This document shows positions 11,339 through 63,165 of a stretch of 64,000 bases of DNA, piece after piece; the first letter of the stretch is position 1; every line of letters begins with the position of its first letter. Source of the stretch: Heterodontus francisci (taxonomy: Eukaryota); contig NC_090395.1 of NCBI RefSeq assembly GCF_036365525.1, positions 65,373,326-65,437,325 on the forward strand, read 5' to 3'. The notes beneath the pieces were generated by a model. The model was not told the DNA's origin and did not search any database. It saw only the letters and a program-made list of their open reading frames with translations. A program made the translations under genes and the position numbers.

Positions 11339-11530
11339 TTACTTTTTGAATACAACTGTAGAATACTCTGTTGGTTCTGAAGCAGGAGGCGTGGTAACCG
11401 ATGGCTTGATTTTTTCCTGACTGTTGGAAGGTTTCACATTATCGGAAGTAGCGGAGTCCTCCTGAGCGTGATCGCTGGGCTGAATTGTCACAGTGGCATA
11501 GGTAACTCCTTCTTCCAACTCTCTGGACAG
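11339..11530 (-). CDS. Gene B exon 6, cytoplasmic ITIM and ITSM
   Basis: CTCTTTATCTTCAG|LSRELEEGVTYATVTIQ...ASEPTEYSTVVFKK*; VxYxxV is an ITIM and TxYxxV is an ITSM. Confidence 0.92.
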   Translation of the reverse strand: MSRELEEGVTYATVTIQPSDHAQEDSATSDNVKPSNSQEKIKPSVTTPPASEPTEYSTVVFKK

Positions 11531-14500: not shown

Positions 14501-17500
14501 CACATACATTATGAAAAATGGGAGCCAGTCAGAAATAAAAAAACAGGTAGTTAAGAGGTTTAAAGCTACATTTTATAAGGGTAAAAGGCTAGATCTCATT
14601 AGGTTAAAAAAGGGAATTAAATTTAGAAATTGGACAAGGAATGAGAAGACGGGAAAATAGTGAGGACAGAAAGAGCAAATTTAAAGTATTATCTTTCTTG
14701 CTGTTAATTGAAATAATTTTTTCATTTCAGTTAACCTTGACATCTCTGTACAGGAACAATGCAAAAGGGAATACTGACTGGCAGAATTTAAAATAAAACA
14801 GTTTTATACTTTTAATTTAAATTCTGATTCAAGTATTCCCTTTTAGCTGTTCCCCAATCACAAATATCAAGGTTAGATAGAACATAAGTTCTACCCCAAA
14901 AAAGCACATAAAATTATGAAGTTCTCACAGCTGCCTTGAGATTACACTGCAGAATTATAGGTACGAACATTTATTTGAAGCTTCTTTGCTAGCTATTTTC
15001 ATCAGTTAACACCACCACTAAAATGGCAGAGAATGCTACCGATATCGGAACTTGCTCCAAGTGGCATTCACCCACCAGCCCTGTGCTCGCTGACCTACAA
15101 TGGCTTTGGATACGGCAACACCTCAAATTTTAAAATTCTCATTCTTGTTTTCAAATGTGTCCTTGACTTCACCCTTCCCTATCTCTGTAACCTCCTCCAG
15201 TCCTACAACCCTCTGAGTTCTCAGTGCCCCTCAATTCTGGCCTTGTTCATATCCCCGATGTTCATCACTTCACCATTGGTGGCTGCGCCTTCACATATGT
15301 GGCTCAGTGTCAAATTTTATTTGATAACACTCCTGTGAAGCGCCTTGGGACCTTTTACTATGGTGAAGGTCCTACATAAATGCAAGTTGTTGTTGTAGAG
15401 AGAAGAATTTGAGATGAATGCATAAAGTGTGTGTATTTATTATCCCAACACATCACTTCACAGACAGTAGATTCCACAGGCATTAAACCAGCCAGTATTG
15501 TCAAGAGGTTGCAGCCTTACCACAGAGTTTGACTTTGGAATAGAATTTTCTATTGTTGATTCCTTCTCTTTGTAGTCTAAAAAATGCAAACATAAAGGTA
15601 ATTAATAAAGCCATTGAAAGCAGCAGGAGGATTTAACATCTGATTGTTTTTGTGTTGTATTAAATGCCATTTAGGAAAAAAAAAATTGCACTTTTTAATA
15701 TTCTCAATTCAACATTAGGTGAAAAACTGGGATAAGTGAGAGTACTGTGGTAATTTTGTTCAATCATTGGGCTATACTTCATGAGTAGCTGACAACTTGA
15801 GCTATTGGGTAACAGTTAAAACCTTGCATTACAATAATTTATTACATAAGAAAACATTAACATCAAACATGGGTTTATATCAGTTACTTATTGTTAGGTA
15901 AAATGCTTCCAGTTTGTGTCAAGCAGTAATTTTTTTGATATATTCTGATAATATTTCACATTCAATCATCTTTTATTAACTTCAAATTGAACACAATTAA
16001 TTTTATGTTTAGCTATTGGTAAAATTGTTCCTACCTATTTTTGTATGCATTAACTAATTGATCTCCTGTGGCATTTCTCTTGGACAAAAGTGGAAAAGAA
16101 AGGTTTTAGTCCTCCTGTAACTGTGTCTCTGCTTGTCTTCCAAGGATAGGTTTTAAAGGTTTCACTGGTGAAGATTCATTTCCCGTTTATGGGAACTGAC
16201 CAGTTTCTATCTCCATTGGGGTCAATGGAAATGAAAAGTAGACGGTTTCTAACATGGGCAGCAGATCCACAACACTAGTTTTACACCCGGGCGGTGAGTT
16301 GCAAATTTGTTCCTGCTAAACTGTGCATGTGCTGTGGCTGTGCAGCAGCCTGGAAGGTACCGCACAGGCCTTGTTCCATGTTAACGTAGCTGTGCAAAAT
16401 AATTTAAAGGTATTGCACATTGAATAAACTGGCCACGCACAACAACAAAATTTAACAGAGAACATTGTCCCCAGTCTTTAATTCTTTCTATTCCCACTTT
16501 GTCATTCCGTTTGCTTTCTACTCTTTGAGTCTCCTTTTTATACCCTTCAGGTTCTCGTACACTTTCACTTGCTGTTGTCTTCCAATCTCTTTGCCTGTCT
16601 CTGATGCTTTGTTTCATTTTTTTCTCTCTCTTTATGTTAGAAAAAAAGTAGATTTTTTTTTTCACATAAATCTCAAATGCCTTCCTGTGATTCATTCAGA
16701 TTTGGTACAGCAATAAATAAGAGTGTTGCTGCAAAGGTTTTGTCAACAAATATGCTTATATATTTGCAGATGTTACTTTACATCATTTAATACTTGGATA
16801 TTGTCCTTACAGAATTATGCCAGGGAGTTTGTAATTCAACAGAACCATTGGAAAGCTTATATGTTTAATTACATATGTATCCACCCAGAAAACCTGCAAA
16901 AAAATGACTCATGGCATCTAAAAAGCTGACGGACATAAATATATATCTTATGACGCACAAACTTCTCATAACTTAAGCTGCAAGCTTAACTTTTATTGCA
17001 AACCTAACCTATTCCCAGCTCCTTCCAGGCACACGTCAATGCTGACTTATGGTAATGCTGCCATGGAATGTAAAACAGTTGTACTCTTCTCACAATCACC
17101 TCACATGTTCACCTTCATATTGGTAGCCAAAAAACAGGGGAGGGAGGGCAATAGGGAGGGTAATTTTTATGCTCTCCCTGCAGTGGGTTTGGAGGTAGGG
17201 AGAGCACAAAGTTGGATGGGATTGTGGCAGGGGTGTTCCTGCCACTATCCCGCTTCTGCCAAAATTTAGTCTGGGGCGGGAAGGCCTGTGAATGGCCTTC
17301 CTGCCTGCCGCCAATTGAGGCCCTTAACTGGGCAATAAACACCCGCCCCAAGGGCCTCTTCCCACCACAGCCACAATTAGCCGTGTGGCGAGTGGCCATG
17401 ACACCACATGGGAAGCATGCGCGACAAACCATGTGGGTTGCTTCCTGGCTCTGTTGGAGTGAGGGTTCCCTCGTTAAAAGGACTTTGTGCCTGAATGATG

Positions 17501-20500
17501 GACCCGGCATTGGGAAGGGGTGGGGGGGGGGGGTGGTGGGCCTGATGAGGGCCCCCCCCCCCCGCCCTTGCTGCCCACCCTCCTCCCCTGGGATTCCCAC
17601 CTCGCGAGACACCTCCCACTCTGACCTACCGGAGGTCTGGTTCACGTGACATTCCTCGGCCTCTGGTAGGTGCAGCTACCGCAGCAGTCACTGTTTCCAC
17701 CGTGGCTGATGCTGCAGCTACTGCCCTCTGATTGGCTGGCAGCTCTGCAAGGACGGGACTTCTGGCGATGGGGTCCTTGATCCTGTGGAAGGCCCACCGC
17801 TGTCCACTTAAAGTGCCTGTTTGGCACTTAATTCGACAGGCCTTCCGGAGAAGAGGTGACATGAGGATCTCGGTGTTGGTTACTCGGGACCCCCGCCGCC
17901 AGGATAAAATTCCTGTCAGAGAGTCAAGTGTGGTCTGATCTATCACTTATCTGTAAGGGGTTACCCTGTTCCCTCATTTATGCCTCTCCCCCTGTCGCCC
18001 TGGCAAAAGCTGTCAATGGATTAAGATACCTTTTTCTTTGAGCCAATGGTTGTAAGAATATTTGACTTACTATGCTGTGACATCCCTTTAATTGACTGCA
18101 TCCCTTTGAATTCCACTCCACACCCATTCAAATCTTCACCTGGAGCTGTGAATGGTTAAGCACAAAGGCGGAGCCACAGAAATTGAGTGCCATCAACAGA
18201 TTATCATTCTGGTGAAATTTGTACTGGTGAACCAATGTATATTAATTATATGGAAATTGGCTCTATTAACTGGTCACTCGTTTAATTTGCAGTTTGCATG
18301 GCCTTGCTGTGTACCCCCTGTCCTATTTAAGAACAATGACGATAGTTCATAAGTAATTCATGGAGTGTGAAATATCTCAGGATGTCCTGAGGACGCTGTA
18401 TAAAATGAAACTCTTTTCATTGTCTAGATGCTTTTAGAGTTGAGGATTATTTGCCTGATTTAATTATTCTACAACTGAATCTAACTGTTAATAGTATAAC
18501 AAATATGAAATTACTAGTGATTCCACATGAGATTATCTAATTAGATGATAGTTTTATTTACAAAGGAATCATTTAGTATTTGATAGCTCATTCATCTTGC
18601 TCTTGATATTTGTTTGAGTAATTATAATTGTTTCACTTCATCATTCGGTACCAAACTGAAACAGTCTCTTGATTTGCAGCACTGAAATGATAGAGAAAAT
18701 ACAGACAAGTGGTCCTTTTAATTAAGAAATAAAATCACCTTTGTGTTGCTAACATGGCTCCCGAGCATTTTAAAATCGTCAGAAAGAAACAATACACATT
18801 GCTATGTGCCATATACAAATTGCTACAATGTTACTGGCAATCCTGTCACCATTATATTATGCTGAATGGACAGAGCAACAGAGTTCCTATTCTTCGAAAC
18901 AGATAAAGCAAGTACCGTCACTTTTGGCTGACTGCTTTGCTGAGATTGGTGCTAGGTTGAAATAAAAATATGAGGAGATTTCTATCCTGACAAGATGTAT
19001 GTACTGCTGAAATGCAGGTGCAGGTAGCACCTCAACCATAAATCAAGACATGGTCCATTAAAAGTTGTTCCACGTCACGCGGCTGGTTTTTGTTTAGTTT
19101 CTTTGAAAGATGGATTTACTTTGTTGCATGAAGATTAGTTTCATTTCTGAACTTACCATTACCTTTGTGCTTTCTTATTTTTTTGATAACTAGGATCACG
19201 AGTCCAAGAAGCATCACCGTCAAAACTCCAAAGATTAGTCCGAGTGTTAGGAAAAGTCTTGGTGGTTTATGAAAAAGAGAGAGAAATTATATGAATACAG
19301 GGATAGGCATAATCAGGCACATATGGGCCATGCATGGTAATGCAACATTTTCAATATCTGCCATATCTCCCAGATGATATTACAGGGCAATGGAGTGGAT
19401 TATTATCCAATGTCACTGAATTAATGGACCAACTATGATAGTTTAATAACAGATGAAAGGTGATCAAACTGAAACGTTAACTCTGTTTTTTTCTCCACAG
19501 ATGCTGCCTGACTTGCTGAGTGTTTCCAGCGTTTCCTGTTTTTATTGTAGAATATTTTAATCCTTAAAATTATTACAAGCTGTGATGCTGAAACAAATAC
19601 TCTCATTACAGATAATGCTAAAATTAACCTTGTTACTATAACATTAACCCTACATAACCAAAGTAGTGTCTTGAATACAGATTTCTTTTGCTCCACCATT
19701 AGCTGACATACCTTCAGCTGTCTAGGTCCTAAGTTCTGGAATTTCTTTCCTAAACCTGACCACGTCTTTACCACATCTCTCCTTTAAGTCGCTCTGTAAA
19801 ACGTAGCTCTTTCGCTAAGCTTTTGGTCACTTCTCTTATCTCTTTATGCGGCTCAGTGTCCAATTTTGTCTGATGATACTCGTGTGAAGTGCCTTGTGAT
19901 GTTTTACTACATTAAAGGTGTTATATAAATGCAAGTTGTTGTAATGGATGTTAAATTATAAAAAAAGAATTTACTATTGCTTGTCCTGTTGTCCCTTCCC
20001 CAAACCTCCACCCGACCCCAACAAGTCTTTCTCCTCTTTCTCTTTGTCTCCTATTTTTAACATTCTAATTCTGCACCTTTATTTCTAATCCCTTATGGAT
20101 TAAAATTCTAGCAGGGCTGTCCCAAACTCCCCGCAAAACCTTGGTAGATGATCAGAGGATGCCCTGGAGAAACAGCGCAAACCTCTTTTAAAAAATGAAT
20201 TGTTTAAAAAAAAAATTGACCTACCTTTCTGAGCCTCTTGGTCCCATCATTCAGTACACAGAAAACGGAACCACACCAGCATGCAAATGGCTTTACTAAA
20301 ACTTGGAAAATGCCGTGTGGCAAATACCACACAACATGCTTTTCTAATACTGTCACAAAACAAAGAGAAGGGCTAAACTTCCCAAAGTTCTCCACGACTG
20401 ATAGTTTGCCTTGCATCATGTCTGGGTCTGCTGTAGACTAATTGATAGAGATTGATTGCTATTATTAGTTATTGTACTGTGGGATTGCCAGGATAGTAGA

Positions 20501-23500
20501 AGCCAAACAAGGTGGATCTTGGTCTTTTTTTGTTTAGCAATTCCTATGTTCCTAAACTCAGGCTACATTATATCACTTGCAGGCAATGAAAACGGCGTGT
20601 GTATTGACTGCAAAGTCTTCAACCACTTAACACTGATATTCCTCCAATACTTAGACCAGAAGTATCAAGAAAGCCCCTATATTGACTTACTTCTGTAGGC
20701 ATAAAACAATTAAACATTTTAAGTCATATGACTTAGTCACTTAACCATTGTGTAAACAGAACATCCATGAACCCCAGTCTAACATACTTTAAGTTACTCT
20801 CGAGCCATGCAGTGGATAGGGCTCGTTGCATGAATATCGAATCACACTGAAACCCAGGGAAAGCACTTCAATCAACGTATATCTGTTAAATCACAAAATT
20901 GTCTTCCCATTGCAAACTGTTATGATGTTAAATCGAGTTACAGTGAAGATTATAAGTGCTTTTGGTCAAAGATATTTCAGTTTTCAGATGTGGTTGACAT
21001 GTAAAATACTGAATTAATGATATGTTATGAAAGCTACATTTCCCTAAAGCTCATAATTATACATGTCGCAAAAAAAACCTAACAATTACACTTTTATAAA
21101 GCGTATTCGTGTCATTTTAAGTTATTTTTCTGGTTTATTTTTAAATTCTCATCCTTTTCAAATCACTCCATCTCCTTGCCCCTCCCTATCTTTGTAAACT
21201 CCTGCAACTCCTCAACCCTCCGAGATATCTGCGCACCTCCAATTCTGGCCTCTTGAGCATCCCCAATTTAAATCTCTCCACCAGTGGCAGCCGTGCCTTC
21301 AGCTGCCAAGGCGCTAAGCTTTGGAATTCCCTCCCTATACCTCTCTGCCTCTCTTTTAAGATGCTCATTGAAACATACTGCTTTTACCAAGCTTTTGGTC
21401 ATCTGCCCTAATATCTCCTTATGTGACTTGATGTCAAATTCTGCTTGATAAAGCTCCTATGAAGTGCCTTGGGATATTTTACTATGTTAAAATGCTAATC
21501 AACGATAAGTTATTGTTGTACTGGCAAGAGTTTGAGAAACCCATAATAGGTAAAATCACACAGCTGATAACTCCTATCTCTTGAGTTTCTGCTAGTTATG
21601 GGGATAATTCTTTGTTCATCCGGAGCAAATAGGAATATTGGATTAGTGCTACCCACCATTTTCTGACCAATTATTTCAATTTCCAATGCATGCCGTGTTC
21701 TCACTAGCACTACAGACTTGTAATGTACTGCCTTAGAGTTAGAATTAGTTACGTGAAGGCCATAAACACATGAATTGTGTCTCACTGACTTGATCTGTGC
21801 TGAGAAACTGAAATAACTCAAAGACTATCGCAAATTTCACATCCTAGTTATCTTTGTCATCCCGCTATATATGAGCTAAAATAATTCCACTAAATTTGCT
21901 TGGCACATACATAATTACGCTGAATCTTACGTATTCACTGAGGCATTATTACTGGATGCAAACTGATACAATTGTACAGGACTGTGAGGTTGTATGTTAA
22001 AAAGGTGCCTTTTCATTGATGGCAGCTGTGTTTGAATCAAACTCAAACTGATGGAAAGAAGATCTCCTCTCCTTGTCTACTCTAAAGGTTTGGATTTGAG
22101 TAGTCTTATCTCAGTCCACAATGGACAAAGGTCAATGGCACAATGCCACCCATAATTCAGCACCTGTTGACAATTCATTGGCAGTTAGGCCACAAGAGTT
22201 GTTGGAGGCAAATGAAAACTGGTGGAGTAGGAGGTTGTCTTCTGGGTCCAAGAGGGGGAATTTCCTCAGCGCTGTTGATTCATCAACAATCTTATTCACA
22301 CGTGAAAACGGGGGTTTTCTGCTCAGCCTCTCCCAAGGTTACACCGGTAGAATGTGGGAAGCACCCAGGAAATTCACCCCCATTGTTTCAAGCACAATGT
22401 TAGGTTGGTGCTGGAGCTGAGAATTACATTCATTCTAAAGTACCGACATTCCCCATTTGGCAGAAACAGTTACCTGAACTTTGCCAGAGAAGTAAATGCA
22501 CAATCTCTCATATGGCAGTCGGACATTTCACATTATTGTACTTGTGCAGAAATAAAACAAATGCTCAGAGTACATCAGTTCAAAAACATTTGACATTTAC
22601 CTTAATCTTTCCTTGTCCTTAGGAAATAGGTTTTGATCTGTTAAAAATGATGTATCAAAATATTATTTGATTATTTACTAGCCTTGTGTGAAAGATTCAC
22701 TCTCAACTACCAAGATCCATTTGCAGTGATTACTGATAGAAGACTGAAATTCTGATTAGATAGATCAAAATGCAACAGGTGGTTTTTCAATATTATCCTG
22801 GCTCACTCTTAACAGAATTATAATTTTAAATCTTGGAGATTTTACAAAATATATAATAGAGCTTGCATCAAATTATATAAACTTGTGATTGTGTAAAAAT
22901 ATATCATTGAAAAATATACACACTAATAAACATACATTTGTGTCCTACCTTTAGTAACTTTGAGTTCTGTGGGACTTAATTCATCCAGAAGGTGAGGTAT
23001 TTCTATTCCACACCAGTACCACCCCTTATCGTTTGTTGTTAATCGCTCCATATGTACTGTAAGTATTCCTTTTACATTATCAGCTTTAATTTTTATTCTG
23101 TCATCATGGCTTTTCCTCTCAGCGCCTTGGGTTTGCACTAAAACAGTACAGCTTCTTCGGTAGTAACCTCTGCACCAGTACTTCTGATAACTTTTATAAT
23201 ATGTGTCAAATTTGCATGTGATATCAACTGATTTTCCCTCTGTTGCAGATTTTACTTTTGGTCCACTTATTGCAGCGTGCGTAACTGTAAATTTGAAAAT
23301 ATTTTAAAGTACAATTGTTGAACACTTCAGAGAAACATAAAAAAATTAAAATTGATGCTCCCTTGTAACTGACTCTATAACTGTTCCACTCATTTTTTTT
23401 CTGTGACCTCCTGTCTCTTTGTTTGCCTTTCATTTGCTCTGTCTGGCTGCCTCATTGTCCTTTCTGTAGCTCTCTGTCTGTTTTTTATTTACTGACTCTC

Positions 23501-26500
23501 CTCTTGCTTCGGTATTTCCCACTGTGTCTACATGGTTGTTACCAATTTACTGAGTTTTGTTTCCTTTACATTGTTGAGGACAAAGGCACACAGCCAGAAA
23601 CAAAAGTGCACTGAGTTGGCGAAGTGGATTTGGGTCAGGCAGAAGAGGTGAGATAAGGGTGGAGAGAGGCTTTCTGTAAGGTTCCAAAATACATAGGGAT
23701 TTCAGAGAAACTGGGAGATAAGTGATGAGTTGAGCTGGTATGTATCGAGGTAGAATTTATCCAAAATCAGACCCTTGTACCCTAAACTGATTGAAGTTGT
23801 ATTGGGCCGAGACTTGTGAAAGTCCCTGGTACTGGTTCAAAAAAGAACTGGTGCAACACACATGAGCGAATCTGAAACAGGAGATGCAAACTTGGGTATG
23901 ATAAGAATGATAGACTAGATAATAGAGCAGGGAAACTTACATTTTAAGAACAGAGCAAGGCGTGGGTAAAGTGACGACAGAGTACAGCTTGAACTGACAC
24001 CTAAAGGTGGAAGGCTCATGAGAGTGGATTATATAAGATTGCATAGGATATACGGCAGAGAAACAGGCCATTCAGTCCATCCGGTCTATGCTGCCATTTA
24101 TGCTCCCCTCGACCCCACTCTCATCTTTCCTCATCTAAATCTAGCGGCTCGACCCTCTATTCCCTTCTCCCTCATATGCCATACTATTCACGTCAACCAT
24201 TCCCTGTGGTAGTGAGTTCCACATTTGCACCACTCTATGGGTGAAGAATTTTTTCTAAATTACCTATTGGACTTCTTGGTGACTATTTTATATTGATGGC
24301 CTCTGGTTTTGCTCATGCCCACAAGTGGAAACTTTCTGTATCCACTCTATGAAAACCTTTCATAATTTTAAAGACCTCTATCAGGTTATCCCACAGCCTT
24401 CTCTTTTCAATAGAAAAGAGACCCAGCCTGTCAATCCTTTCCTGAGATGTATACCCATACATAATTCCCTTCTGAAAACCACGATTGAATCTGCCTCCAC
24501 CACACTCTCAGGCAGTGCATTCCAGATCTTACCTACTTGCTGTGTAAAAAATCTTTTCCTCTTGTCGCCTTTAGATCTTTGTTAATCTCTTTAAATCAAT
24601 GTCCTCTGGTTCTTAACCCTTCTGCCAATGGGGACAGCTTCCCCCTATCTACTCTGTCCAGACCCCTCATCATTTTGAACACGTCTATCAAATCTCTTCT
24701 TAATCTTCTCTTCTTTAAGGAGAACAACCCCAGCTTTTCCAACTTATCCACATAACTGAAGTTCCTCATCCATGGAATCATTCTCATTCTGAACCCTCTC
24801 TTATGCCTGCACATCTGTCCTAAAGTGTGGTGCCCAGAACTGGGCACAGTACTCCAGTTGAGGCTGAACCAGTGTTTTATAATGGTTCAGCATAACTTCC
24901 TTGTTTTTTCACTCTAGCCTCTATTTGTAAAGCCCAGGATCCCATATGCTTCTTCACCACTTTCTCAATTTGCCCTGACACCTTCAATAATTTGTGCACA
25001 TATACCCCCAGGTCTCTCTGCTCCTGCACCCCATTTAGAATTGTATCTTTTATTTTATATTGCCTTTCCTTGCTCTTCCTACCAAAATGTATAACTTCAC
25101 ACTTCTCTGCATTAAATTTCATCTGCCACGTGTCCGCCCATCCCACCAGCCTGTCTGTGTCTCTTGAAATCTAACTATCCTCCTCGCAGTTCACAATACT
25201 TTAAGTACTACAAAGATTGAAATTGTGCCCTACACACTCAAGTCTAGGACACTAATGTAGATCAAGAAAAGCAGTGATCCTGGGAAACCCCACTATGTAC
25301 CTTCCCCCAGTCCAAAAAACAACCTTTCATCACTACTAGGACCCGCATGGGTCCTAGTTATGCCTGTCTTTTTGTGGGGTATGTCAAGCATTCTTTGTTC
25401 CAGTCCTACTCAGGCCCCCTCCCCCAACTCTTTTTCCGGTACATCGATGACTGTATCGGTGCCGTTTCCTGCTCCCGCCCCGAACTGGAAAACTTTATCA
25501 ACTTTGCTTCCAGTTTCCACCCTTCTCTCACCTTTACATGGTCCACCTCTGACACTTCCCTTCCCTTCCTCGACTTCTCTGTCTCCATCTCTGGGGATAG
25601 GTTGTCTACTAATATCCATTATAAGCCCACCGAGTCCCACAGCTACCTCGACTACACTTCTTCACACCCTACCTCCTGTAAGGACTCCATTCCATTCTCC
25701 CAGTTTCTCCGTCTCCGACGCATCTGCTCTGATGATGCTACCTTCCATGACGGTGCTTCTGATATGACCTCCTTTTTCCTCAACCGAGGACTTCCCCCCA
25801 CTGTGGTTGACAGGGCCCTCAACCGTGTCCGACCCATTCCCCGCACCTCTACCCTCACCCCTTCCCCTCCCTCCCAGAACCGTGACAGGGTTCCCCTTGT
25901 CCTCACTTTTCACCCCACCAGCCTCCACATCCAAAGGATCATCCTCCGCCATTTCCGCCACCTCCAGCGTGATGCCACTACCAGTCGCATCTTCCCCTCC
26001 CTTCCCCTGTCAGCATTCCGAAGGGATCGTTCCCTCGGCGACACCCTGGTCCACTCCTCCATTACCCCCACCACCTCGTCCCTGTCCCATGGCACCTTCC
26101 CCTGCAATCGCAGGAGGTGTAATACCTGCCCATTTACCTCCTCTCTCCTCACTATCCCAGGCCCCAAATACTCCTTTCAGGTGAAGCAGCGATTTACTTG
26201 TAGTTCTTTCAATGTAGTATACTGTATTCGCTGCTCACAATGTGGTCTCCTCTACATTGGGGAGACCAAGCGCAGACTGGGTGACCGCTTTGCGGAACAT
26301 CTCCGCTCAGTCCGTAAGCAGGACCCTGAGCTTCCGGTTGCTTGCCATTTCAACACTCCCCCCTGCTCTCATGCTCACATCTCTGTCCTGGGATTGCTGC
26401 AGTGTTCCAGTGAACATCAACGCAAGCTCGAGGAACAGCATCTCATTTACCGATTAGGCACACCACAGCCTGCCGGACTGAACATTGAGTTCAATAATTT

Positions 26501-29500
26501 CAGAGCATGACAGCCCCCCATTTTACTTTCATTTTTAGTTATTTTTTTCTTTCTCTTTTTTTTTACATTTTTTACAATCTTTTTTTTTGCATTTTTTTCA
26601 TTTCATCTTAGTTTGTTCAGTTTGCTTACCCATTGTTTTTTTTCAGGTTTGCACTTGCTGCTGTTCAATATTCAGTGTATTAACAGCTAATCTGTACAAA
26701 TGCTTTGTCTTTCAACACATCATTAACATATTGTTTGCCTTTTCTCCGTGACCTTTTGGTCAGCTATGTGGCCTGGTCCAATCTAGACCTCCTTTGTTAT
26801 CTCTTGCCCCACCCCCACCTCACTTGCTTATAACCTGTGACTTTTCTAATATTTGTCAGTTCCGATGAAGGGTCACTGACCCGAAACGTTAACTCTGCTT
26901 CTCTTTCCACAGATGCTGCCAGACCTGCTGAGTGGTTCCAGCATTTCTTGTTTTTCTTCCATCACTACTCTCTGTTTCCTGTCACTCAACTAACTTCATA
27001 TCCATGCTGCCACTGTCTCTTTTATTCCACGGGCTTTAATTTTGCTGAGAAGCCTGTTCTGTGGCACTTTATCAAGCTGGGAGATCAGTGAAAAGGGTTG
27101 CTGTAGCAGGACTAAAGACTTCAGCCATGTGGAAGAGTAGGACTAAAGCTATCTTACTGTGAAGAAGGGAAAGGACCTGACATAGTGGAAGCAGACTTTG
27201 GTGGGAGAGAGGGAACAGAGTCAGATCTAGAATGATTGAGTTGATCCTGGGAGGGAAGACACCTAGAGCTGGGGTAGTTGGAGTGGGCCTGGGATAGAAG
27301 GAGAGAGGCAATATGTGGTCCGTTTATGACGGTCTTGATTGAAAGCTGTACCTGGAACACTTTGCTTGAAATGGAAATTAGGACATCATGTAAATGACAG
27401 GAAATAGATGTTTTGTATTTTCAGAACATCCTTTTTATCCATCCTCAGATTTCCTCTTATTGGGTTTAGAAAATAAGAAGTGAAGCTGGTTGTGTGACTA
27501 ACTACAATATCTGTATCCATATCTGAGTCAGATCTTCCTGGCCAGTGCTGCTGTTCAAGGAGTTGATGCAGCATGCCACAATAAAGGCTTTAGCCTTCAC
27601 AGGTCAACATGAGCTACAAGATAGTGCAATAGCAGCGAAACCACAGACCGGTGTATTGATCAGACTGGAAACTCACTACATCCTGTGTTATCTTTATAAT
27701 ATACATTGGTGAAGTCTGTGGGCTGGTTTTGTTTTTTTTTTCTGTGGTGGCATCCTCCTGTATAGACCTCAGCCTTGGTTTCTTGCTAATTAAAAATATG
27801 TATAGACAGTCTATAGAAGGAACACTTCACTTTTCATACATAGGAACAATTACTTTATCATTACTTTTGAATCTATTTTCAAGTTACTGCACTCTTCTAC
27901 TATCTTAACTTCTTGAGAACTTCTTCTCTATGTATTTTACCAGAAACCTCAAAGGATACAGTGGCCATTGAATGGTCACAACTTTAAAGTGGTTCTGCAA
28001 TATCCTGGGTCTTTGAGTACAGTAGAATTGATCTCACTTACAGTTAGGTGAAATTAGGAGCACCAGAAATAATGGAGAAAGAATTGTATTAACACAATGT
28101 ATAGACTGGATTTTGTTGAGGTCCTTACGGCGGGATCTGTGACGGGGGGGACTTGCTGGAAGATTGTACCGGCAGCAGTCCGCCATGGAGTCCGACAACG
28201 GGAGTTGCTGCGTGGTAGATCACGGCGGCACGGGGGTCTGAGGCCTGCATGTGCAGGCTGTGATTTTTTTTTGGACCCGCTGTGGCAGTGGGAAAACAAA
28301 ATGCAGTCCTATGTGTGTGCTGTTCCTTAAAGGCCACAACTGTATCTTATATTTTCTGGTTGTGGGGGTGGGGGTTCCCAGTTGGTTTGTATGGATGGAC
28401 AGAGAAAAATGGCAGCCTCAGACATCTAGTGGGGATGTTCTTTTATGAAAATCAGGATTCCATTTCTGGCGGAGTTCTCGGAATAACACCCTAGAAGAGT
28501 TTGGTGGAGTGGCAGAGTGGGGGAGGGGTGGGTGGGAGTTCAAACAGCTGCCCCAGGCTCCACAGTCGATGTTTTTTAAAATAAAAAAAGACTTACCTTT
28601 CAGTGATGGCTGCTGAAGAGTCTTGATAAGGGTAGGCCCAATGCTCAAACAAAGGCCCAATTTGAGTTCTGGGTCAGCTGGTTTTCAAGCTACTTTTAAA
28701 AAATTCTTTCATGGGATGTGGGCGTCGCTGGTTAGGCCAGGATTTATTGCCCATCCCTAATTGCCCTTGAGAAGGTGGTGGTGAGCTGCCTTCTTGAACT
28801 GCTGCAGTCCATGTGCGGTAGGTCCACCCACAGTGCTGTCAGGAAGGGAGTTCCAGGATATTGACCCAGCGACAGTGAAGGAACAGCGATATAGTTCCAA
28901 GACAGGATAGTGCGTGACTTGGAGGGGAACTTGCAGGTGGTGGTGTTCCCATGCATTTGTTGCCCTTGTTCTTCTAGTTGGTAGAGGCCGTGGGTTTGGA
29001 AGGTGCTGTCTAACGAGCCTTGGTGCGTTGCTGCAGTGCATCTTGTAGATGGTACACACTGCTGCCACTGTGCACTTTGGGCGCAGGAAGCTTGTCCCCA
29101 AAATTTGACTTGTTGAGGACTGTTTTAGATGCAAAACAGGCAAGAACGAGGTTCAAATAATTATGAAAAGTAATGATTTCAGATTCATTATGGCCAGTGC
29201 CTTCATTAAATGTGCAGACATACAAAATGCTTTTACCCTGTACAAGATAACATTTTTCTTTGGCAGAGGGTCACAGGCAAGAGGGTAGCATCTATGCTGG
29301 GACAACCTTAGCAAAGAAATGTCTGTGAAATTATTTTAGTATTTGTGTCTTTTCAAAATTTTACCAGGCCTAGTATTGTTGGGAGAAACTGGCAAAGGGG
29401 GAGAATCATCTGTGACAGACATTTTATATTTTTAGTTAAAATTTGATGGAGCCAGCAGATTTTAGTATGCTAGAAATATTTAAAGTCACCACTAAGAATG

Positions 29501-30986
29501 CTGCCAAACCCACCCGCTTCCGTTCAGGGCTCTTTGTACAATCTATTCACAATCAAACATACTGACCAGTCTGTCTCACTAATCGCTGCTTTATAAAATT
29601 CGGAGTATTTATGTTAATTAGGAGATGACAGTATTGCAATGAGTAGCATAATTTTTCCAAAAAATATTAGATAGCATTTGAAACATTTCAAAGATATTTA
29701 GATTTGCATCTGATTATTTAAGGAAACAGTAATTATTTTAAAAAAATAATGAGTTCTGACTTTAAAATTCAATGTGTCCGAGAAGTTGTTCTCTACTCGG
29801 AGGTAAGGTAGCCGTTAGGAGCTGATTCACTGGATTTTTACAATCATTTAAAAGAACCCACATGAAATAGGCATGAAGAAGATTGAAAAGGAGCTGAAAT
29901 GGAGTTCTCTGTTTGCTAATGGCACTGAATATTTCCCAATGGTACAAAATATAAACACATTTGGCTTTTTGTCAATAATGAAAATATTTCATTACTTAAC
30001 AACAGTCAGTTAAATAAATCAATCAGAACTACAGGTAAAAATCAGAATCTTGCAACTGTTGTGACCAATTAGTTGCAAGATTCTGCCTTATTAACATGTA
30101 AGAGGTTAAAATTCCCTTCTAGTCAATATGTGTATAAAACTGGTGACATGCTTGAATCAGCAAAGGCAGGGATTTCTCCCAATGTCCGATTTTGTCGCCC
30201 CATTGCACAGGCAATGAGTGGGAGATTAAAAACACACCATGTTTTACAGCGATTAAAAAATAATGCAAGATGTTTAACAAAAATGTTTACTTGCAGTTTC
30301 TGCTTTGGTATTTGCAGAAATTACAGGAAATGCAGTATTTGAAAGACTTCAAATGATATTTACCATATAATGTCATGATTTCACTTATTATTCTCCTGCA
30401 CTTTGCATTTACATTGATGTCAAACAAAACTGTGCATTATGTTCGAACTCAAAATTATTGGATGTTTCTCAACTGATTTGTGAACTCAAATTTTAACTGA
30501 TCAATTGAACAAGTCAATACATATAAAGAGGCTCAATGAGCACATATTACACTGTGCGAAATGTAAAGCCCTGTTATTACAAATTCAGCGTGAACAGAAA
30601 AATAATTTGTCTAATCAGACAATTCACCTCATCCAGGTTTGAATTTCTAGCTTCACACCAATCAAGACTAAAGAAAATGGACGTTAAAGCAGGTGGTCTG
30701 ATTGCTTGAGTTTGTTAAAATGAGGTTCTGTTGTATTATTTTTGATGTAAAATAGGGGACATATATTTATCTTTTTCTCTAAAGACAATCATTACTGATC
30801 TTGATAAAGAATCATAGTATGAAAAGCAGAAGATATTCCTTAGTCCAATATCATGAGATTTTCAACAGACCACATTTCCAGTCAGACTGACACAACTACA
30901 TGTTTCTATTACTTCCAAAAACTCCAATAAGACCAATATTCCTTACCTGATAGGAAAGCAATGGACAGGAGAAGGATAAAACCCAT
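11339..30986 (-). CDS. Gene B: CD300/pIgR-like (CMRF35-like) single-IgV receptor, inhibitory type (ITIM+ITSM), 253 aa, 6 coding exons
   Basis: Exons 30986-30947, 23284-22949, 22637-22601, 19257-19157, 15576-15521, 11530-11339. All GT-AG, phases 1,1,2,1,0, 762-nt open frame. Leader, IgV, stalk, uncharged TM and a cytoplasmic tail with VTYATV and TEYSTV. Confidence 0.92.
12896..14127 (+). mobile_element. Solo LTR (ERV or Gypsy type) with a nested SINE
   Basis: TGTCA...TAACA ends, 4-bp TSD ATCC (12892-12895 and 14128-14131), AATAAA at ~13575; interrupts a CR1 3' fragment. Confidence 0.8.
13642..13980 (-). mobile_element. V-SINE nested in the solo LTR
   Basis: Same family as 3249-3560, full length. 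Confidence 0.85.
15066..15395 (+). mobile_element. L2-like LINE 3' end
   Basis: FKILILVFK peptide and GTGAAGCGCCTTGGGA...TAAATGCAAGTTGTTG tail; similar copies at 19690-19942 and 21140-21500. Confidence 0.75.
15521..15576 (-). CDS. Gene B exon 5, cytoplasmic (DYKEKESTIENSIPKSNSV)
   Basis: 56 nt, TTTGCATTTTTTAG|...GTG|GTAAGG; phase 1 to 0 bridges the TM exon and the last exon exactly. Confidence 0.82.
17157..17918. mobile_element. GC-rich Harbinger-like MITE
   Basis: GGGTAATTTTTAT / ATAAAATTCC ends; CCAATTGAGGCCCTTAA and CCTCTGATTGG shared with 33409-34129. Confidence 0.65.
19157..19257 (-). CDS. Gene B exon 4, transmembrane (LFLTLGLIFGVLTVMLLGLVILVI-KKIRKHKGN)
   Basis: 101 nt, pyrimidine tract then CCAAG|, G|GTAAGT donor; 24 uncharged residues followed by a basic stop-transfer cluster. 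Confidence 0.92.
19445..19547 (+). repeat. Penelope terminal-repeat fragment (degenerate hammerhead region)
   Basis: GATGAAAGG...GAAACGTTAACTCTG...CCACAGATGCTGCC matches 26861-26955; similar pieces at ~4718-4815 and at 39352-39417/43686-43745. Confidence 0.75.
22601..22637 (-). CDS. Gene B exon 3, stalk (DQNLFPKDKERLR)
   Basis: 37 nt, TTTTTAACAG|...TTAAG|GTAAAT, phase 1 to 2. Confidence 0.88.
22949..23284 (-). CDS. Gene B exon 2, IgV domain
   Basis: 336 nt, TTTACAG|TT...AAA G|GTAGG; VTHAAISGPKVKSATEGKSVDITCKFDTYYKSYQKYWCRGYYRRSC...DKGWYWCGIEIPHLLDELSPTELKVTK; 57 of 112 residues identical to the gene A V domain by manual alignment. Confidence 0.95.
25338..26955 (+). mobile_element. 5'-truncated Penelope-like retroelement inserted in an older CR1
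   Basis: ORF 25347..26510 has RT C-terminus (MG..., RYIDD) and GIY-YIG (VVYCIRC...LYIGET...RFAEH); TSD CATCACTACT at 25328-25337 and 26960-26969. Confidence 0.93.
26857..26896 (+). ncRNA. Minimal type I hammerhead ribozyme-like motif in the Penelope terminal repeat
   Basis: AGTT-CCGATGA-AGGGTCACTGACCC-GAAA-CGTT-AACT; stem II GGGTC/GACCC; the core has CCGATGA instead of CTGATGA. Confidence 0.6.
28706..29075 (-). mobile_element. LINE 3' fragment, same family as 10180-10730
   Basis: ORF 28757..29143 ending FKKAAHHHLLKGN. Confidence 0.75.
30947..30986 (-). CDS. Gene B exon 1, signal peptide (MGFILLLSIAFLS)
   Basis: ACAATGG start context, hydrophobic leader, TCA G|GTAAGG phase-1 donor. Confidence 0.88.
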
Positions 30987-43597: not shown

Positions 43598-44469
43598 ATA
43601 GAGCATCTGGATCGGCGCAGGCTTGGAGGGCCGAAGGGCCTGTTCCTGTGCTGTAATTTTCTTTGTTCTTTGCTCTTTTATAATTAACGTTTTAGGTGAA
43701 TAACCTTTCATTTCAGGTTTGCAGCATCTGCAGTATTTTACTTCCTTTGGGCTACCTGGTGATTATGTGGCATTGATGGCTGGGGTGTCAAAAATAGATA
43801 GCTTCTCCACCTGTTGCGATTGTGTTGGGACAGCAGGCGATGAAAAAATGGAAATAAGTTAAAATGAATTACACAACTGCAGTGATCTCTTCCACAAAGC
43901 AGTTCAACCACCTTTAATTTTACGAGGCGTGATCAGACTTCTAGTTTATTGAAGAACAATTAATTTTGCAATATAGGTGACTTCCATGAAAAAAATACAG
44001 TTGATTTTTGCACAAAGTTACAGCAACATTGAGCACAACAAAAATCAGTTCACATTATGAAGCTAATTTCCCACTGCGCGCTTCTGACAGCCTCACCCAC
44101 CTGGAGTGTGCAGCAGAGTGTGCATGTTGTACAAGCACACAATTTTCTGAACATTTACTTTAAATGATTGGGGAATCATGCCGGAGTTTCCCAGCTGCTG
44201 AAGCTTCCTGGCAAAGGGCGAAGCCAGAAGATGATCCCAGGTATATATTCCAGGACATTCCATGGGGATTTTCCCAAACTCCCATGGTATCCTTGATGGG
44301 ATATTGGGACAAACACTGTGAGGTTACTGCACGAGGTCAGGAGAACCTCTGAAGAATTTCCAGTCCATTATATACATTGAAAATACAAACACATTGAATG
44401 GAAAAAAGTCAATTCAGTTGTCAACACTGAGGGCTGATGAACCAATGCTTTGGCAAATTGTTATCCATT

Positions 44470-45048
44470 GTTAACCTACAAATCTTTATTGTGTAAAATC
44501 TAGTCACAGCTATAAGTGTTGTGGCCCCAGTTTAAACTTATAGGTCTAGAAACTACGGTAAATGTGAACATTTGCACTTCAACCATTCAGTAATGGGACA
44601 GAAATGTGGCAGTCATTACTACAGTAATGCATCATGCACATGAATCTCACCTTTTAAAAAGCTGAAGTGAGAAACATTCATTTAAGATGAGTAGATTCAA
44701 ATATTTTTTCCACATTCTTTGTTTCTGGCATTGCTGGAACTATTCTGTACTCCTCTGTTGTTGTGGGATTAACTAACCCTTGATGATAGTTTCAAATTAT
44801 TCTGCAAGAGACCTATTTACAGTATTTACCCTGCATTTGCTCTTCATACATCTTAAAGAGAATTAGTGATTTTGAAAGAACAGAGCAGGGTTATTGTAAA
44901 ATATCTTTCAGTCAGTCCATGCCAGACATATGCCGAATAAGGGCACGATGAGGATAGTTTTGCAATTCGGTTGACTGGACATTCTGCAGTGCACTGAAGG
45001 TGTTGATGAATCATGAGACAGTAATGTAAAATTACACATCCTATTGCC
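44470..45048 (-). other. Probable non-coding terminal (3' UTR) exon of gene A
   Basis: Strong acceptor CCTTTGTTTTTGGCTTCCAG|G at 45049-45050 downstream of the post-stop donor at 47810; minus-strand AATAAA at 44485-44490; non-repetitive sequence. Confidence 0.45.
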
Positions 45049-47450: not shown

Positions 47451-47823
47451 TTCAAGTTTAAACTCACCCCATTGAGCTTTGGGGCATTTTTAAATATATG
47501 TTCTGTACTAATCATGCTACATTGGTAAAATATTACATATTAATGCACTTAATATTCCGAATCTAGTGTGTCCCACATTTAGAAAATTCATTAAATAAAT
47601 GCTAACTGCATCTACATTTAAGCTTTGAAAGCTGCTTGACTGGGTCAATAAAAAATCTTCCCTAAACATGATCTCAATATAAGATAAAATGCAAGTCTTC
47701 TGGTTGTTATCCTTTCTAAAATATTTATAATGAGTAGGTTATAAAAACTTCATCCAAAGTTTTTGTAGTCAAGCTTAAATGCACAGAAATGATTAAAATC
47801 AACAACTTACCAGTTTTCATCAT

Positions 47824-47923
47824 CTATATTTTCAGTTTGACTAAAAGGGCCCAAACAAGCAGAATGGCAAAGAATGCCCAGCGTAAAATGCTCCATATAA
47901 AATAGTACAGAGAATTATTTTGC
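47824..47923 (-). CDS. Gene A exon 4, transmembrane helix with Arg and very short tail
   Basis: Acceptor TTTTGTCTTCTATCTACCTAG|; encodes QNNSLYYFIWSILRWAFFAILLVWALLVKLKI*; the exon continues 13 nt past TAG to a G|GTAAGT donor (exon end 47811). Confidence 0.88.
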
Positions 47924-50900
47924 CTAGGTAGATAGAAGACAAAATGGTTTAATCAAAATAGTTTTCCATATCCAGAGTTACCTTGGATGTATGAATTATT
48001 TGGTTACACTTGTGATGGAAGGTAACAAGTTTTTCTACTGTCCTGCTCCTGGTGCATGCTGGGAAATGACACACTTTGACCCATGACATTCCATCTATTA
48101 AAATTAGTGGACAGTCAGTATTGAGTTGGAAAGTGCACTGTCTCCCAGTATTAGCTTGTACCAAGAGCATTGAAGTGGCAAATCTCCAGTTTCCTTCTCT
48201 CATTAGATATGATAGCATAATGACAGCATAGTATCACGAAATCAGCTTCTATTGATATCCATGTGCTACAAGAATACTTGCTAACGTTAAAAGTAGAAAC
48301 AGAAATGCTAACGTTAAAAGTAGAAACAGAAAATGTGGAAACAGGCCAGTCAGCAATTACAGACAGAGTAGCTGAGTTGAACATTTCAGGTGTAGACTCT
48401 TCATCAGAACTGAAATGTTACCTTGCCTGTTTTCCCCACAGATGTTGACTGCCCTTTACCATCATTTCCTGATTTTGATTCAGAAATCCAGCATCTACAG
48501 GACTTTTGTTGTCAATAAAATGTATTTTTATGTTTTGATTTAAACATACAATCAATACTGTGAACAAAAGATGTGGGTAGGCTGTTGTTTGCGAGTTTTA
48601 AGTGCAATACTTAATGAAGAAAAAGAAATTGGGGCCAATTTTAATTCTGCAGGCAAGAAATACACAGGATCGGGTGGAACCCAGCTTTTACACCTGGCAA
48701 ATATTAAATTGCGGGTGGGGGATGGTTGGAAAACCAATATTGCACCTGATCCCATCAGTTTCCTGACAGACGCATCAGTTTCCTGACAGACGCATTGGGT
48801 TAAAATTGCTCCGTTAGAAACAGTCTATGACAGGTTAAAATACTTTTTTAGAATATATTCCTTGCACAGTTTGAAACAATGCAGGGCTCTTGGGTGTATC
48901 GGACTTTCATAGACCTCCATCATGTGAAGTAATGAATGAATAATGCTAAATTTCAATCCGTGGGGGTTTAGCGCTTGGAATTTCTACGACTGATCTCGCA
49001 CTTTGGCCATTTGTACCATTTCTCTTGGGTTTTCACCAATTTCCTGCTGAGGTTATGGCGAGAGATGGGGAGAAGCCCCATGAGAATTTGCGCACAGATC
49101 TTTAACTAAAACTAATCAAAGATCTTTTTTTATGTCCTGGTAATTTTTTCAAGTGTAATAAATTGATGACTTTGGTGGCTAAAGGATGGCAAATTACAAT
49201 GTACCATTGGTGCAAGTGAGGATTCAGTTCTGTGTCTGTGGCTTGATTTTAACTATTGGGTGTCCAGGTGTGCGAGACGGCCGACTGATAGTGCTGTCTG
49301 TCCTGACTTTTACTTCTATTGACTTCAACAGGACAAGATCTACAACTGGCTGCCACACACACTTTGCATTATTGCATAAAGGCAAAAATGCCCCCTTTTG
49401 ATTCTGGTATGGGTGTTAAAGATGCATTTCCTTCCACAGGACTGACCTCCCACACTTTGGGCAATTATCCACCTGTACCTTCTCAGAATCTCTCATATTG
49501 CAGTAGGACATTACTCATTATTGTGGTTAGGAACATAGCAAAATAGAAAATTTAAGGCACAGAAAGAGGCCATTCGGCCCATCATGTCTGTGCCCGCCAA
49601 AAGATAATCCAGCCTAATCCCTCTTGGTCATTAGTCCTATAGGTTATGACACTTCAAGTGCATATCCAAGAGTTTTTTTTTTAGAACAATGAGGGTTTCT
49701 GCCTCTACCATCCTTTCAAGTAGTGGGTTCTGGATCCTCTCTGGGTGAAAAAAACTTTTCCTCAACTCCCCTCTAATCCTTTTCACAATTACTTTAAATC
49801 CATGCCCGCTGGTTATTGACCTCTCTTCTAAGGGAAATAGGTCCTTCCTATCCACTATATCTAGGCTCTCAAAATTTTATACATCTCAATTAAATCTCCC
49901 TTCAGACTCCTCTGTTCCAAAGAAAAGAACCCCAGCCTACCCAATCTTTCCTCATAGCTAAACATTCCTGACAATAGCCTCATAAATCTCCAATGTACCC
50001 TGTCTCCAGTATGATCAGAATTGTGCAGAGGCAGATGTCCAGAATGGTCCAGTTTAAGTAGGTATGCCATTTACCTTAGGATTTCCTTGCCCGATGGATC
50101 ACCTGAGATTGAAGGAAGTAACTTGTAACCTGTTAAAAATTACATAAATGATTGATTATATAGATTATACTGTCAAATTGTGGTTCACATCAGTCTTAGC
50201 CATCAGAGATAAATTTATACTGATTTGTGATAAAAAAGATGGAAAATTTCATGGGGATAGAATTAGTACCAAAATGAAACACTTTGTCGTTTTTCACTAT
50301 TCTGCTGGCTTACTCTTAATTGAAAACTTTGGAAATTTTGAAAAATACATAATAAGTCATGCAGCAAATTATGTAAACTCAAAGGCATACAGCTGAAAAA
50401 TATACATGATAATAAAAAAATTCAGATCCTACCTTCATTGACTTTAAGTTCTACAGGACTTAAGATGTCCGACAAAAATCTTTCAATTCCACACCAGTAC
50501 AAGCCTTGGTCATTCTTTGTTAATTGATTCATCGTTACTGAAAATTTTCCTGCTTCATTATCAGCAGCAATGGTTATTCTGCCATCAGAATTTGTCTTCC
50601 TCGGGCCTTGGGTTCGTACTAGAATAGTACAATCTTCCCAGTTGTCGCCTCTGCACCAGTACTTTTGAAAATTGCTGTAGAATTTGTTGTATGTACATGT
50701 GATATGGACTGATTGTCCCACTGACCCATTTACTATATCCGGTCCATCTAGTGCAGCGCATGTAACTGTTCAGTGTGAAATTAAAACACATGTTTTAATG
50801 TACAATAAAAGTAAATAAATGCAACAGTTTAATAGCATAGAGTGTATTTTGAATGTTTAAACTTTAAATATGTGCATTGAGACTCGTAAACTTACTCTGC

Positions 50901-62900: not shown

Positions 62901-63165
62901 GTGCGTTGGATTTCCTATAGGAAAATTGGGTAGGGAAGATTATACCCTCTCCAGCAACGGATACCATCTGGTTTTCTGTACATTTAAATTAACTCTTAAT
63001 GTTAACAAATTTTAATTGGACAACAATTCTAGAAGAGAGTTCTGCTAATAATACTTATTTCTATAAATCTCACACTAACGCACACAATTGTCATGCACCC
63101 ATAGAAGTTCATAGCAATTGTTTCTTACCTGAGGAGATCATGAAAAGATGAAATGCAAAATCCAT
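47824..63165 (-). CDS. Gene A: CD300/pIgR-like (CMRF35-like) single-IgV receptor, activating type, 174 aa, 4 coding exons
   Basis: Exons 63165-63129 (leader), 50765-50433 (IgV), 50129-50075 (stalk), 47923-47824 (TM+stop). All junctions are GT-AG with phases 1,1,2, giving a 525-nt open frame. Protein: MDFAFHLFMISSVTCAALDGPDIVNGSVGQSVHITC...QKYWCRGDNWEDC...DQGLYWCGIERFLSDILSPVELKVNEGYKLLPSISGDPSGKEILRQNNSLYYFIWSILRWAFFAILLVWALLVKLKI*. Confidence 0.88.
48345..48412 (-). ncRNA. Penelope-derived hammerhead-like motif in gene A intron 3, sense orientation
   Basis: Minus strand CAGTT-CTGATGA-AGAGTCTACACCT-GAAA-TGTTC-AACT. Confidence 0.5.
49545..50000 (-). mobile_element. CR1 3' fragment
   Basis: LGFFSLEQRSLKGDLIEMYKI. 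Confidence 0.8.
50075..50129 (-). CDS. Gene A exon 3, stalk (GYKLLPSISGDPSGKEILR)
   Basis: 55 nt, TTTTTAACAG| ... CCTAAG|GTAAAT, phase 1 to 2; similar to gene B exon 3 including its splice sites. Confidence 0.88.
50433..50765 (-). CDS. Gene A exon 2, IgV domain
   Basis: 333 nt, AACAG|TT...GAA G|GTAGG. Has B-strand Cys (ITC), KYWCRG with a second Cys pair (CX7C) and DxGxYWC, the CD300/pIgR/TREM signature. Overlaps ORF 50422..50721. Confidence 0.95.
51012..51717. mobile_element. GC-rich Harbinger-like MITE
   Basis: GGGCAAGATGTT / AAAATTCAGCCC ends, ATG on both flanks. Confidence 0.65.
51735..52178 (+). mobile_element. CR1 3' fragment
   Basis: Nucleotide similarity to the other CR1 3' ends in the window. 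Confidence 0.75.
52342..53138. repeat. CpG-rich unclassified element with short inverted ends
   Basis: CTGACAACACAAA ... TTTGAGTTGTCAG; internal pyrimidine-rich then purine-rich halves; no TSD found. Confidence 0.55.
53300..53775 (+). mobile_element. CR1 3' fragment
   Basis: WNALPERVVEADSRVTFKRELD. Confidence 0.8.
54397..55187. mobile_element. GC-rich non-autonomous DNA transposon, Harbinger-like
   Basis: Ends GGACTGGATTTT / AAAATCCCAGCC, with TAT on both flanks. Confidence 0.7.
55398..55767. mobile_element. hAT-type MITE, 370 bp
   Basis: Perfect 12-bp TIR TAAAGGCCTGCT/AGCAGGCCTTTA, perfect 8-bp TSD CCTGGTTA, subterminal CCCGA repeats. Confidence 0.92.
56260..57470 (-). mobile_element. RTE-clade LINE fragment
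   Basis: GVKQGCVIAPILFSLFL and ELQHTDDA (YADD site) in ORF 56932..57207. Confidence 0.8.
57480..58480 (-). mobile_element. Vingi/Ingi-like LINE relic
   Basis: Minus-strand translation gives PQGAVLVPSLFHIYTSD, KFIYDDD and WGANAHT...STIEYCTSFW. Confidence 0.6.
58488..60772 (-). mobile_element. Decayed CR1, interrupted by the MITE at ~59590-60361
   Basis: ORFs 58946..59284 and 60496..60693 give CR1 RT peptides. Confidence 0.85.
59590..60361. mobile_element. GC-rich Harbinger-like MITE inserted in CR1
   Basis: GCTGAATTTTA / TAAAATTCAATGC ends; GAAGGGGTTGAGGGTTAGA shared with the truncated copy at 32429-32970. Confidence 0.65.
60785..61222 (-). mobile_element. Deu-type SINE
   Basis: Reverse complement of the same family. 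Confidence 0.75.
61340..61985 (+). mobile_element. CR1 3' fragment
   Basis: FSLEKRRLRVDLIEILKIMKG. Confidence 0.8.
62455..62848 (-). mobile_element. Deu-type SINE, degenerate
   Basis: Reverse complement of the same family. Confidence 0.7.
63129..63165 (-). CDS. Gene A exon 1, signal peptide (MDFAFHLFMISS)
   Basis: ATG...TCA G|GTAAGA phase-1 donor. Shares the TCAG|GTAAG end and similar 5' context with the gene B and C leaders, and joins the IgV exon in frame. It lies 12.4 kb from the V exon, so the linkage is inferred. Confidence 0.78.

Follow-up and report, generated by a model that had tools for sequence, protein, structure and literature searches.

The principal feature of gene A, a shark receptor gene of the CD300/pIgR type, is a conserved and reusable transmembrane (TM) module with the motif W-x-x-L-R-W (hereafter LRW), rather than a shark-specific switch to the adaptor FcR-gamma. 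Gene A and its relative gene B were studied in the window, the whole 64,000-nucleotide stretch of Heterodontus francisci DNA that was analysed, to which all coordinates refer.

Structure and transcription of gene A

The following features were assigned to gene A:

63129..63165, minus strand: leader exon of phase 1 with 37 coding nt, matching the N-terminal end of NCBI model P0163 without differences
50433..50765, minus strand: IgV exon, 333 nt, CD300/pIgR-type V domain
50075..50129, minus strand: stalk exon of 55 nt (phase 1 in, phase 2 out), fitting a 54-letter gap in the spliced contigs
47811..47923, minus strand: TM exon, the fourth coding exon, phase 2 to phase 1, with juxtamembrane residues, the W-x-x-L-R-W helix and the KLKI tail
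47881..47883, minus strand: CGC codon of Arg156, with Trp152 at -4 and Trp157 at +1
47826-47824, minus strand: stop codon in the 3' part of the TM exon, followed by 13 nt of 3' UTR
43918..45048, minus strand: last exon, 3' UTR only, low end approximate, with hexamers resembling poly(A) signals at 43950 and 43918

Reading of the minus-strand exon 47923-47811 (113 nt, AG/GT ends, phase 2 entry) gave QNNSLYYFIWSILRWAFFAILLVWALLVKLKI, followed by the TAG codon. A preliminary description of this DNA had placed a TM segment ending in KLKI and a stop at 47923-47824; this interval corresponded exactly to the distance from the exon start to the stop, and both the splicing and the stops of the orthologues agreed with it. 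The product was identified as NCBI model P0163 (XP_067913491, "CMRF35-like molecule 7", Heterodontus francisci, 174 aa), which contains a single IgV. Pfam matched no family (0) to the TM reading frame, and the ESM Atlas gave no usable match for residues 125-174.

Spliced contigs from runs X1 and X2 connected the IgV exon, the 54-letter gap, the TM exon (0 mismatches) and the exon at 45048. They originated from two of three runs of one sample in one study and were taken to be RNA by guess, none being listed as RNA on record. No joining contig was present among those listed for run X3. Because these contigs were spliced through the TM exon to the exon at 45048, the stop codon of gene A was considered to be real. 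The same stop position was shared by the shark orthologues P0001, P0162, P0203 and P0037 (Rhincodon, Stegostoma, Heptranchias and Mustelus), and in rays the stop was found near it. The cytoplasmic tail of gene A comprises the four residues KLKI and has no tyrosine motif.

The 3' UTR of gene A was found to harbor a minus-strand intron (47810-45049) with its donor 13 nt past the stop, and this donor is of phase 1, as is the donor of the gene B TM exon. The intron may be left over from a tail exon that was once coding. Transcript decay is not expected from it, the donor being so near the stop.

The use of this phase-1 donor, together with the longer tails of some LRW paralogues, fits a reading of gene A as a degenerate or truncated copy, in which the stop arose recently by mutation of an exon that formerly extended into a cytoplasmic tail. 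However, the ORF is intact and spliced, and four other shark species have their stop at this very position, with that of rays close by. Because the stop is conserved in the orthologues, any truncation of gene A must be old and fixed; this reading was largely refuted, and we regard it as highly improbable.

Omission of the 55-nt stalk exon (50129-50075) from gene A would frameshift the TM exon (47923-47811) and yield a soluble IgV. The basking shark model P0170 (isoform X2) reads the TM exon in this stalk-skipped frame. Among the gene A contigs listed, no skipping of the stalk exon was seen.

Ectodomain of gene A

The IgV of gene A matched the Pfam V-set (E 4e-18), its top PDB sequence matches were pIgR and CD300LF, and its best fold match in Foldseek was IREM-1/CD300LF (E 1e-12). 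An additional Cx7C pair, C50-x7-C58, was found in this domain, with both cysteines invariant in alignment A2. By these features of the IgV, namely the Cx7C pair and the best structural match, gene A is a CD300/pIgR-like receptor. In the IgV tree, the clade containing genes A and B was not joined with support to the mammalian CD300 clade. No flanking genes suitable for synteny comparison were found within the 64-kb window. Between genes A and B there are two long plus-strand ORFs, which we take to be a CR1-type LINE ORF (39691-43594) and a Penelope-like reverse transcriptase ORF (25278-26507).

The preliminary description had recognised a CD300-like receptor of the activating type that has an Arg within the membrane and lacks a signalling tail; the fold and sequence matches, the helix predicted by AlphaFold at residues 146-171 and the four-residue tail all agree with it.

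Distribution of the LRW module

A profile built from 12 TM stretches, and from the TM only, matched at least 27 proteins among the best 7999 candidates scored, all of them CD300/pIgR-like. Ig Pfam domains were present in 26 of the 27, and the remaining one was an isoform from the same turtle lineage. When the profile was applied to 207 proteins, a clean split was obtained: members scored at least 27 bits and all others less than 5. Mammalian TMs of the Lys/Glu (K/E) type gave no match in this set of 207. None of LILR, FcaRI, GPVI and NKp46 was matched among the 7999 candidates scored, and of the four matches to PDB none was better than E 0.65.

The pattern W-x-x-x-[RH]-W was present in 34 of 35 profile matches, so that the two Trp residues were as conserved as the Arg. 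In the 32 distinct motif TMs, the basic position was occupied by Arg (31) or His (1) and never by Lys (0). Position -3 was Ser in 11, Ala in 10, Gly in 9, Arg in 1 and Asn in 1; gene A has Ser. Pro was found at -5 in 12 of the 32. Among short-tailed LRW relatives, 26 of 29 had no YxxL/I/V/M motif, and some LRW paralogues had longer tails.

The carriers that could be named comprised six shark species, five rays and skates, two sturgeons, four turtles and nine lizards, plus teleost-type variants. A search of chondrichthyan relatives for the motif, as the preliminary description had proposed, was thus successful in both sharks and rays, and the motif was also found beyond chondrichthyans. No mammal, bird or amphibian LRW protein was present among the 7999 top candidates scored, which is weak evidence of absence. 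Judged from this distribution of sequences, the LRW TM is an old module of jawed vertebrates and not a shark oddity.

Several variants and relatives were noted. Arg is replaced by His in Lacerta agilis, and a true NxxR occurs in one Hemitrygon member (proteins P0172 and P0166). The eel and bonefish pIgR-like proteins P0070, P0184 and P0110 have a related-looking L-R-[HK] TM start, which was missed by the LRW profile. A lineage with V and C2 domains (P0177, P0187, P0195, P0200, P0205, P0007 and relatives) extends from teleosts to turtles, crocodilians and lizards, with GI[DQE]RP[YF]ADIM conserved in the V domain; most members with a complete TM have the LRW TM, and the lizard models have no second domain. 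This lineage is annotated only as CMRF35-like or TREM2-like.

A search of the full-text literature by subject, in which the motif letters were not queried, found no description of a W-x-x-L-R-W TM motif. The motif may already have been figured in the primary MDIR or PIGRL papers. PMC9321927, the NILT preprint (10.1101/2022.04.21.489081), PMC4536121, PMC11961605 and PMC6795676 had little bearing on the LRW TM.

Position of the arginine in the membrane

AlphaFold predicted a single helix in gene A, in which the Arg is residue 156; this TM prediction placed Arg156 inside the helix, as opposed to outside the membrane. Its depth was estimated in nine hydropathy scans with the Kyte-Doolittle scale, a biological hydrophobicity scale and an end-damped version of our own, with windows of 19, 21 and 23 residues. 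The positions obtained were 3, 6, 3, 7, 7, 3, 7, 10 and 7, i.e., 7 in four scans and 3 in three, and in the best 21-residue windows Arg156 was at position 7. Arg156 is followed by 14 apolar residues if the count ends at the first residue that is charged, an amide or His. The distance from Arg to the cytosolic edge was also 14 residues in 19 of the 32 LRW TMs, and in five mammalian-type CD300 TMs the Lys/Glu was followed by 14, 14, 14, 15 and 9 residues; P0031, a sixth match to the pattern, was excluded as another type.

It was reported that Arg is at TM position 3 in FcaRI and that the Asp of FcR-gamma is at TM position 6 (PMC1440944). In KIR2DL4, Arg is at TM position 4 (PMC8102735), and NxxR was described as the defining motif of TMs that pair with FcR-gamma (PMC2413239). 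DAP12 partners have a basic residue at TM position 7-12, and type I partners use Lys (PMC1440944). Compared with the latter, the depth of Arg156 is compatible, but the residue is Arg.

It had been proposed that the Arg occupies an outer, FcR-gamma-type position of the NLxR/NxxR class, in contrast to the central Lys of CD300. The scans gave positions of 3-10, most often 7; Asn was found at -3 in 1 of 32 motif TMs, with no profile match to LILR, FcaRI, GPVI or NKp46 among the 7999 candidates scored; and both the Arg and the CD300 Lys were approximately 14 apolar residues from the cytosolic edge. Neither depth nor motif bore out the contrast between an outer Arg and a central Lys, the side chain alone being a clear fit, and the label "FcR-gamma-type" was half right: it suits the Arg side chain but not the motif, and the depth estimates extend from 3 to 10. 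The premise that a CD300 Lys implies DAP12 proved to be leaky, considering that mouse LMIR8/CLM-6 has a TM Lys and yet couples to FcR-gamma (PMC5974347), as does catfish LITR2.6b (PMC4810170).

The depth estimates also bear on the reading that Arg156 is located in the outer interface region or screened by the flanking Trp residues, so that, with no salt bridge, the TM would associate with itself, pair in cis with gene B or bind an adaptor independently of charge. The placement of Arg156 at position 3 in three of the nine scans, which applies if the tail lysines snorkel, would be consistent with this reading, and so would the equal conservation of both Trp residues with the Arg and the binding of adaptors by catfish LITR2.6b without its basic residue (PMC4810170). 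However, the 14 apolar residues after Arg156 are insufficient to span the membrane alone, and strict retention of Arg together with a motif-less tail is the usual signature of activating receptors. Therefore, we consider this reading unlikely.

A periodicity of conservation on the Arg face of the helix (peak at 90-100 degrees) was rejected as evidence, since 2041 of 10000 shuffles reached it.

Gene B and probable recoupling of the TM exon

The features of gene B, the putative inhibitory partner of gene A, were as follows:

11342..30986, minus strand: gene B, with leader 30986-30947, IgV 23284-22949 and stalk 22637-22601
19257-19157, minus strand: TM exon of gene B (uncharged), followed by tail exons, the last of which encodes VTYATV and TEYSTV

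Gene B is approximately 27 kb downstream of gene A on the same strand and combines its uncharged TM with two ITIM-like motifs. The IgVs of genes A and B fell into one clade (support 97-98), which included shark and ray orthologues. Genes A and B form a clustered pair of activating-type and inhibitory-type genes, an arrangement that characterises CD300/pIgR-like receptors. A leader-like exon of a third family member was found at 3872-3786 of the window (minus strand) and is fused to gene B in NCBI model P0002; the shark and ray models P0001, P0003, P0021, P0086 and P0144 look fused in the same manner.

The exon phases of genes A and B were identical, and in both genes an Arg codon is split by the phase-2 stalk/TM junction. 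Their DNA could be aligned in the leader, in a 531-nt stretch of the IgV exon and the intron behind it (68%), in the stalk and at the start of the next intron; no alignment was obtained for the TM exons and their flanks. Because shuffled sequences scored as high as the real pair in 35 of 1000 trials with DNA and in 1339 of 2000 with protein, there was no clear similarity between the two TM exons, in agreement with what the preliminary description had noticed. The fact that aligning introns precede non-aligning exons suggests that the 5' halves of genes A and B share a more recent ancestor than their TM exons.

When the LRW label was mapped on a tree of 154 IgV domains, 11 changes were required, of which 8 were forced by starred branches, and a single clade of LRW-bearing IgVs was rejected by the AU test (39 chosen rows, p-AU 4.6e-36). 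The stingray proteins P0030 and P0098 are near-identical in IgV and stalk up to an Arg, after which one continues into the LRW TM and the other into an uncharged TM with ITIM-like motifs. In the white shark model P0144, the two units differ likewise, with an LRW TM in one and an uncharged TM with ITIMs in the other. As judged from the proteins, the ray pair would switch at the phase-2 intron. Because the LRW exon is joined, through a shared phase-2 junction, to IgVs of several unrelated clades, some of which are near-identical to the ectodomains of ITIM receptors, recoupling of this exon throughout the family is supported. Of the two origins suggested for the gene A TM exon, exon swapping or deep divergence, both appear to be partly true, the exon being very old and also repeatedly recoupled.

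The LRW TM exon would be an activating cassette of long standing within the cluster, joined to ectodomains again and again, either by unequal crossover or by a conversion in which an inhibitory paralogue supplied the 5' half. The same scheme of TM-exon shuffling was described for the Xenopus XFL receptors, which use an NxxR exon (PMC2413239).

Proposed adaptor pairing

Receptors of this class that lack a signalling tail must signal via a partner, and the same therefore applies to the tail-less gene A. The best explanation, to which we give an even chance, is that the Arg of this tail-less CD300/pIgR-like receptor pairs with acidic residues of a dimeric ITAM adaptor, most likely FcR-gamma/CD3zeta, and that gene A is the predicted activating partner of gene B. 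Counted in favour of it were the four-residue tail, the presence of Arg in 31 of 32 LRW TMs, the uncharged TM and ITIMs of gene B, and the grouping of the A and B IgVs. FcR-gamma/CD3zeta was chosen because type I receptors with Arg prefer FcR-gamma and because of capping by Trp at -4; the choice was not based on NxxR. The preference of FcR-gamma for Arg was reported in PMC1440944. Against this choice are the occurrence of NxxR in just 1 of 32 TMs, the CD300-like register of 14 residues, position 7 in the best 21-residue windows, which is within the 7-12 range of DAP12 partners as opposed to 3-4 for FcaRI and KIR2DL4, and the finding that a KIR with Arg at position 9 did not bind FcR-gamma (PMC1440944). 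The catfish LITR2.6b result and the 2014 shark survey described below also count against it.

In this explanation, the Trp at -4 (in reptiles, also the Pro at -5) would cap the helix, the chain would enter the membrane approximately 5 residues before the Arg, and the Arg would lie approximately 5-7 residues in. Arg156 would form an Arg-Asp-Asp assembly with a dimer of the FcR-gamma/CD3zeta type, and ligand binding would cluster the receptor-adaptor complex and trigger Src/Syk signalling.

Arg156 could instead correspond in position to the CD300 Lys and pair with DAP12 or DAP10. DAP10 takes Arg from NKG2D. The register of 14 residues matches that of the mammalian CD300 Lys/Glu, position 7 was obtained in four of nine scans, and the AlphaFold helix begins at residue 146, ten residues ahead of the Arg; moreover, Arg from type II receptors is accepted by DAP10 and by rodent DAP12 (PMC1440944). 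However, according to the same source, type I DAP12 partners have Lys, and the K9R substitution in KIR costs 85% of assembly with DAP12, decreasing it to 15%. None of the 32 LRW members has switched to Lys. Mammalian K/E TMs escape the LRW profile, so that the common register need not reflect homology. We consider pairing with DAP12 or DAP10 less likely than pairing with FcR-gamma/CD3zeta but a serious alternative.

As for the adaptors themselves, CD3zeta transcripts are documented in sharks (PMC10768021), whereas a 2014 survey did not find the FcR-gamma chain in the shark data of that time (PMC4016189). In one supplement of PMC3964593 on the elephant shark, 12 adaptor or CD300 terms gave no match; its other supplements may bear on this. 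For catfish LITR2.6b, the basic residue was no predictor of the adaptor, and K-to-R and K-to-A substitutions were without effect on binding (PMC4810170).

Significance

It is tentatively suggested, as a rather speculative proposal, that LRW represents a third, ancestral class of activating TM module in jawed vertebrates: a portable phase-2 exon that predates the split of sharks and bony fish, was widely reused by CD300/pIgR-like ectodomains, was lost in mammals or gave way there to the Lys/Glu type, and has a Trp-flanked Arg that docks an ITAM adaptor by a geometry unlike those of NxxR with FcR-gamma and of Lys with DAP12. If so, it would provide a handle on the wiring of the first immunoreceptor-adaptor pairs. 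Gene A, which is short, intact and transcribed and has a strict Arg motif, would be a clean probe for adaptor choice in early jawed vertebrates, and LRW receptors bear on the antiquity of the mammalian rule of Arg with FcR-gamma versus Lys with DAP12. Because paired CD300-like receptors, TM exon shuffling and an FcR-gamma-coupled CD300 were already known, the surprise is limited.

Comparison with known systems

The mammalian activating CD300/CMRF35/LMIR receptors (CD300b, c and e; mouse LMIR8/CLM-6) resemble gene A in having a single CD300-type IgV, a short stalk, a short tail, an ITIM-bearing neighbour and a charged TM residue approximately 14 residues from the cytosolic edge. However, their TM has Lys/Glu in L-[KE]-[LV]-P, whereas gene A has Arg in W-x-x-L-R-W, with no profile similarity between the two. 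Gene A would function in the manner of these activating CD300s.

Skate MDIRs (modular domain immune-type receptors) and teleost PIGRL (pIgR-like) receptors are, like gene A, CD300/pIgR-like receptors of fish with activating and inhibitory members. Activating and inhibitory multigene families of the CD300/pIgR/TREM-like type were reported for skate MDIRs and zebrafish (PMC3031540). Skate relatives carrying the LRW TM were found in this study.

The NxxR receptors (LILRA2, PIR-A, NKp46, GPVI, OSCAR, FcaRI and Xenopus XFL TM1) have ectodomains of C2-type domains. Like gene A, they are type I members of the Ig family with Arg in the N-terminal half of the TM and no signalling tail, and in XFL the TM exons are shuffled between paired receptors (PMC2413239). 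Gene A differs from them by Ser instead of Asn at -3, two conserved Trp residues, a CD300-like V-type ectodomain and an Arg that is apparently deeper (approximately 5-7, with scans spanning 3-10, versus 3-4). As far as its amino acid sequence indicates, the TM of gene A is outside both the NxxR class and the Lys/Glu class of CD300 TMs.
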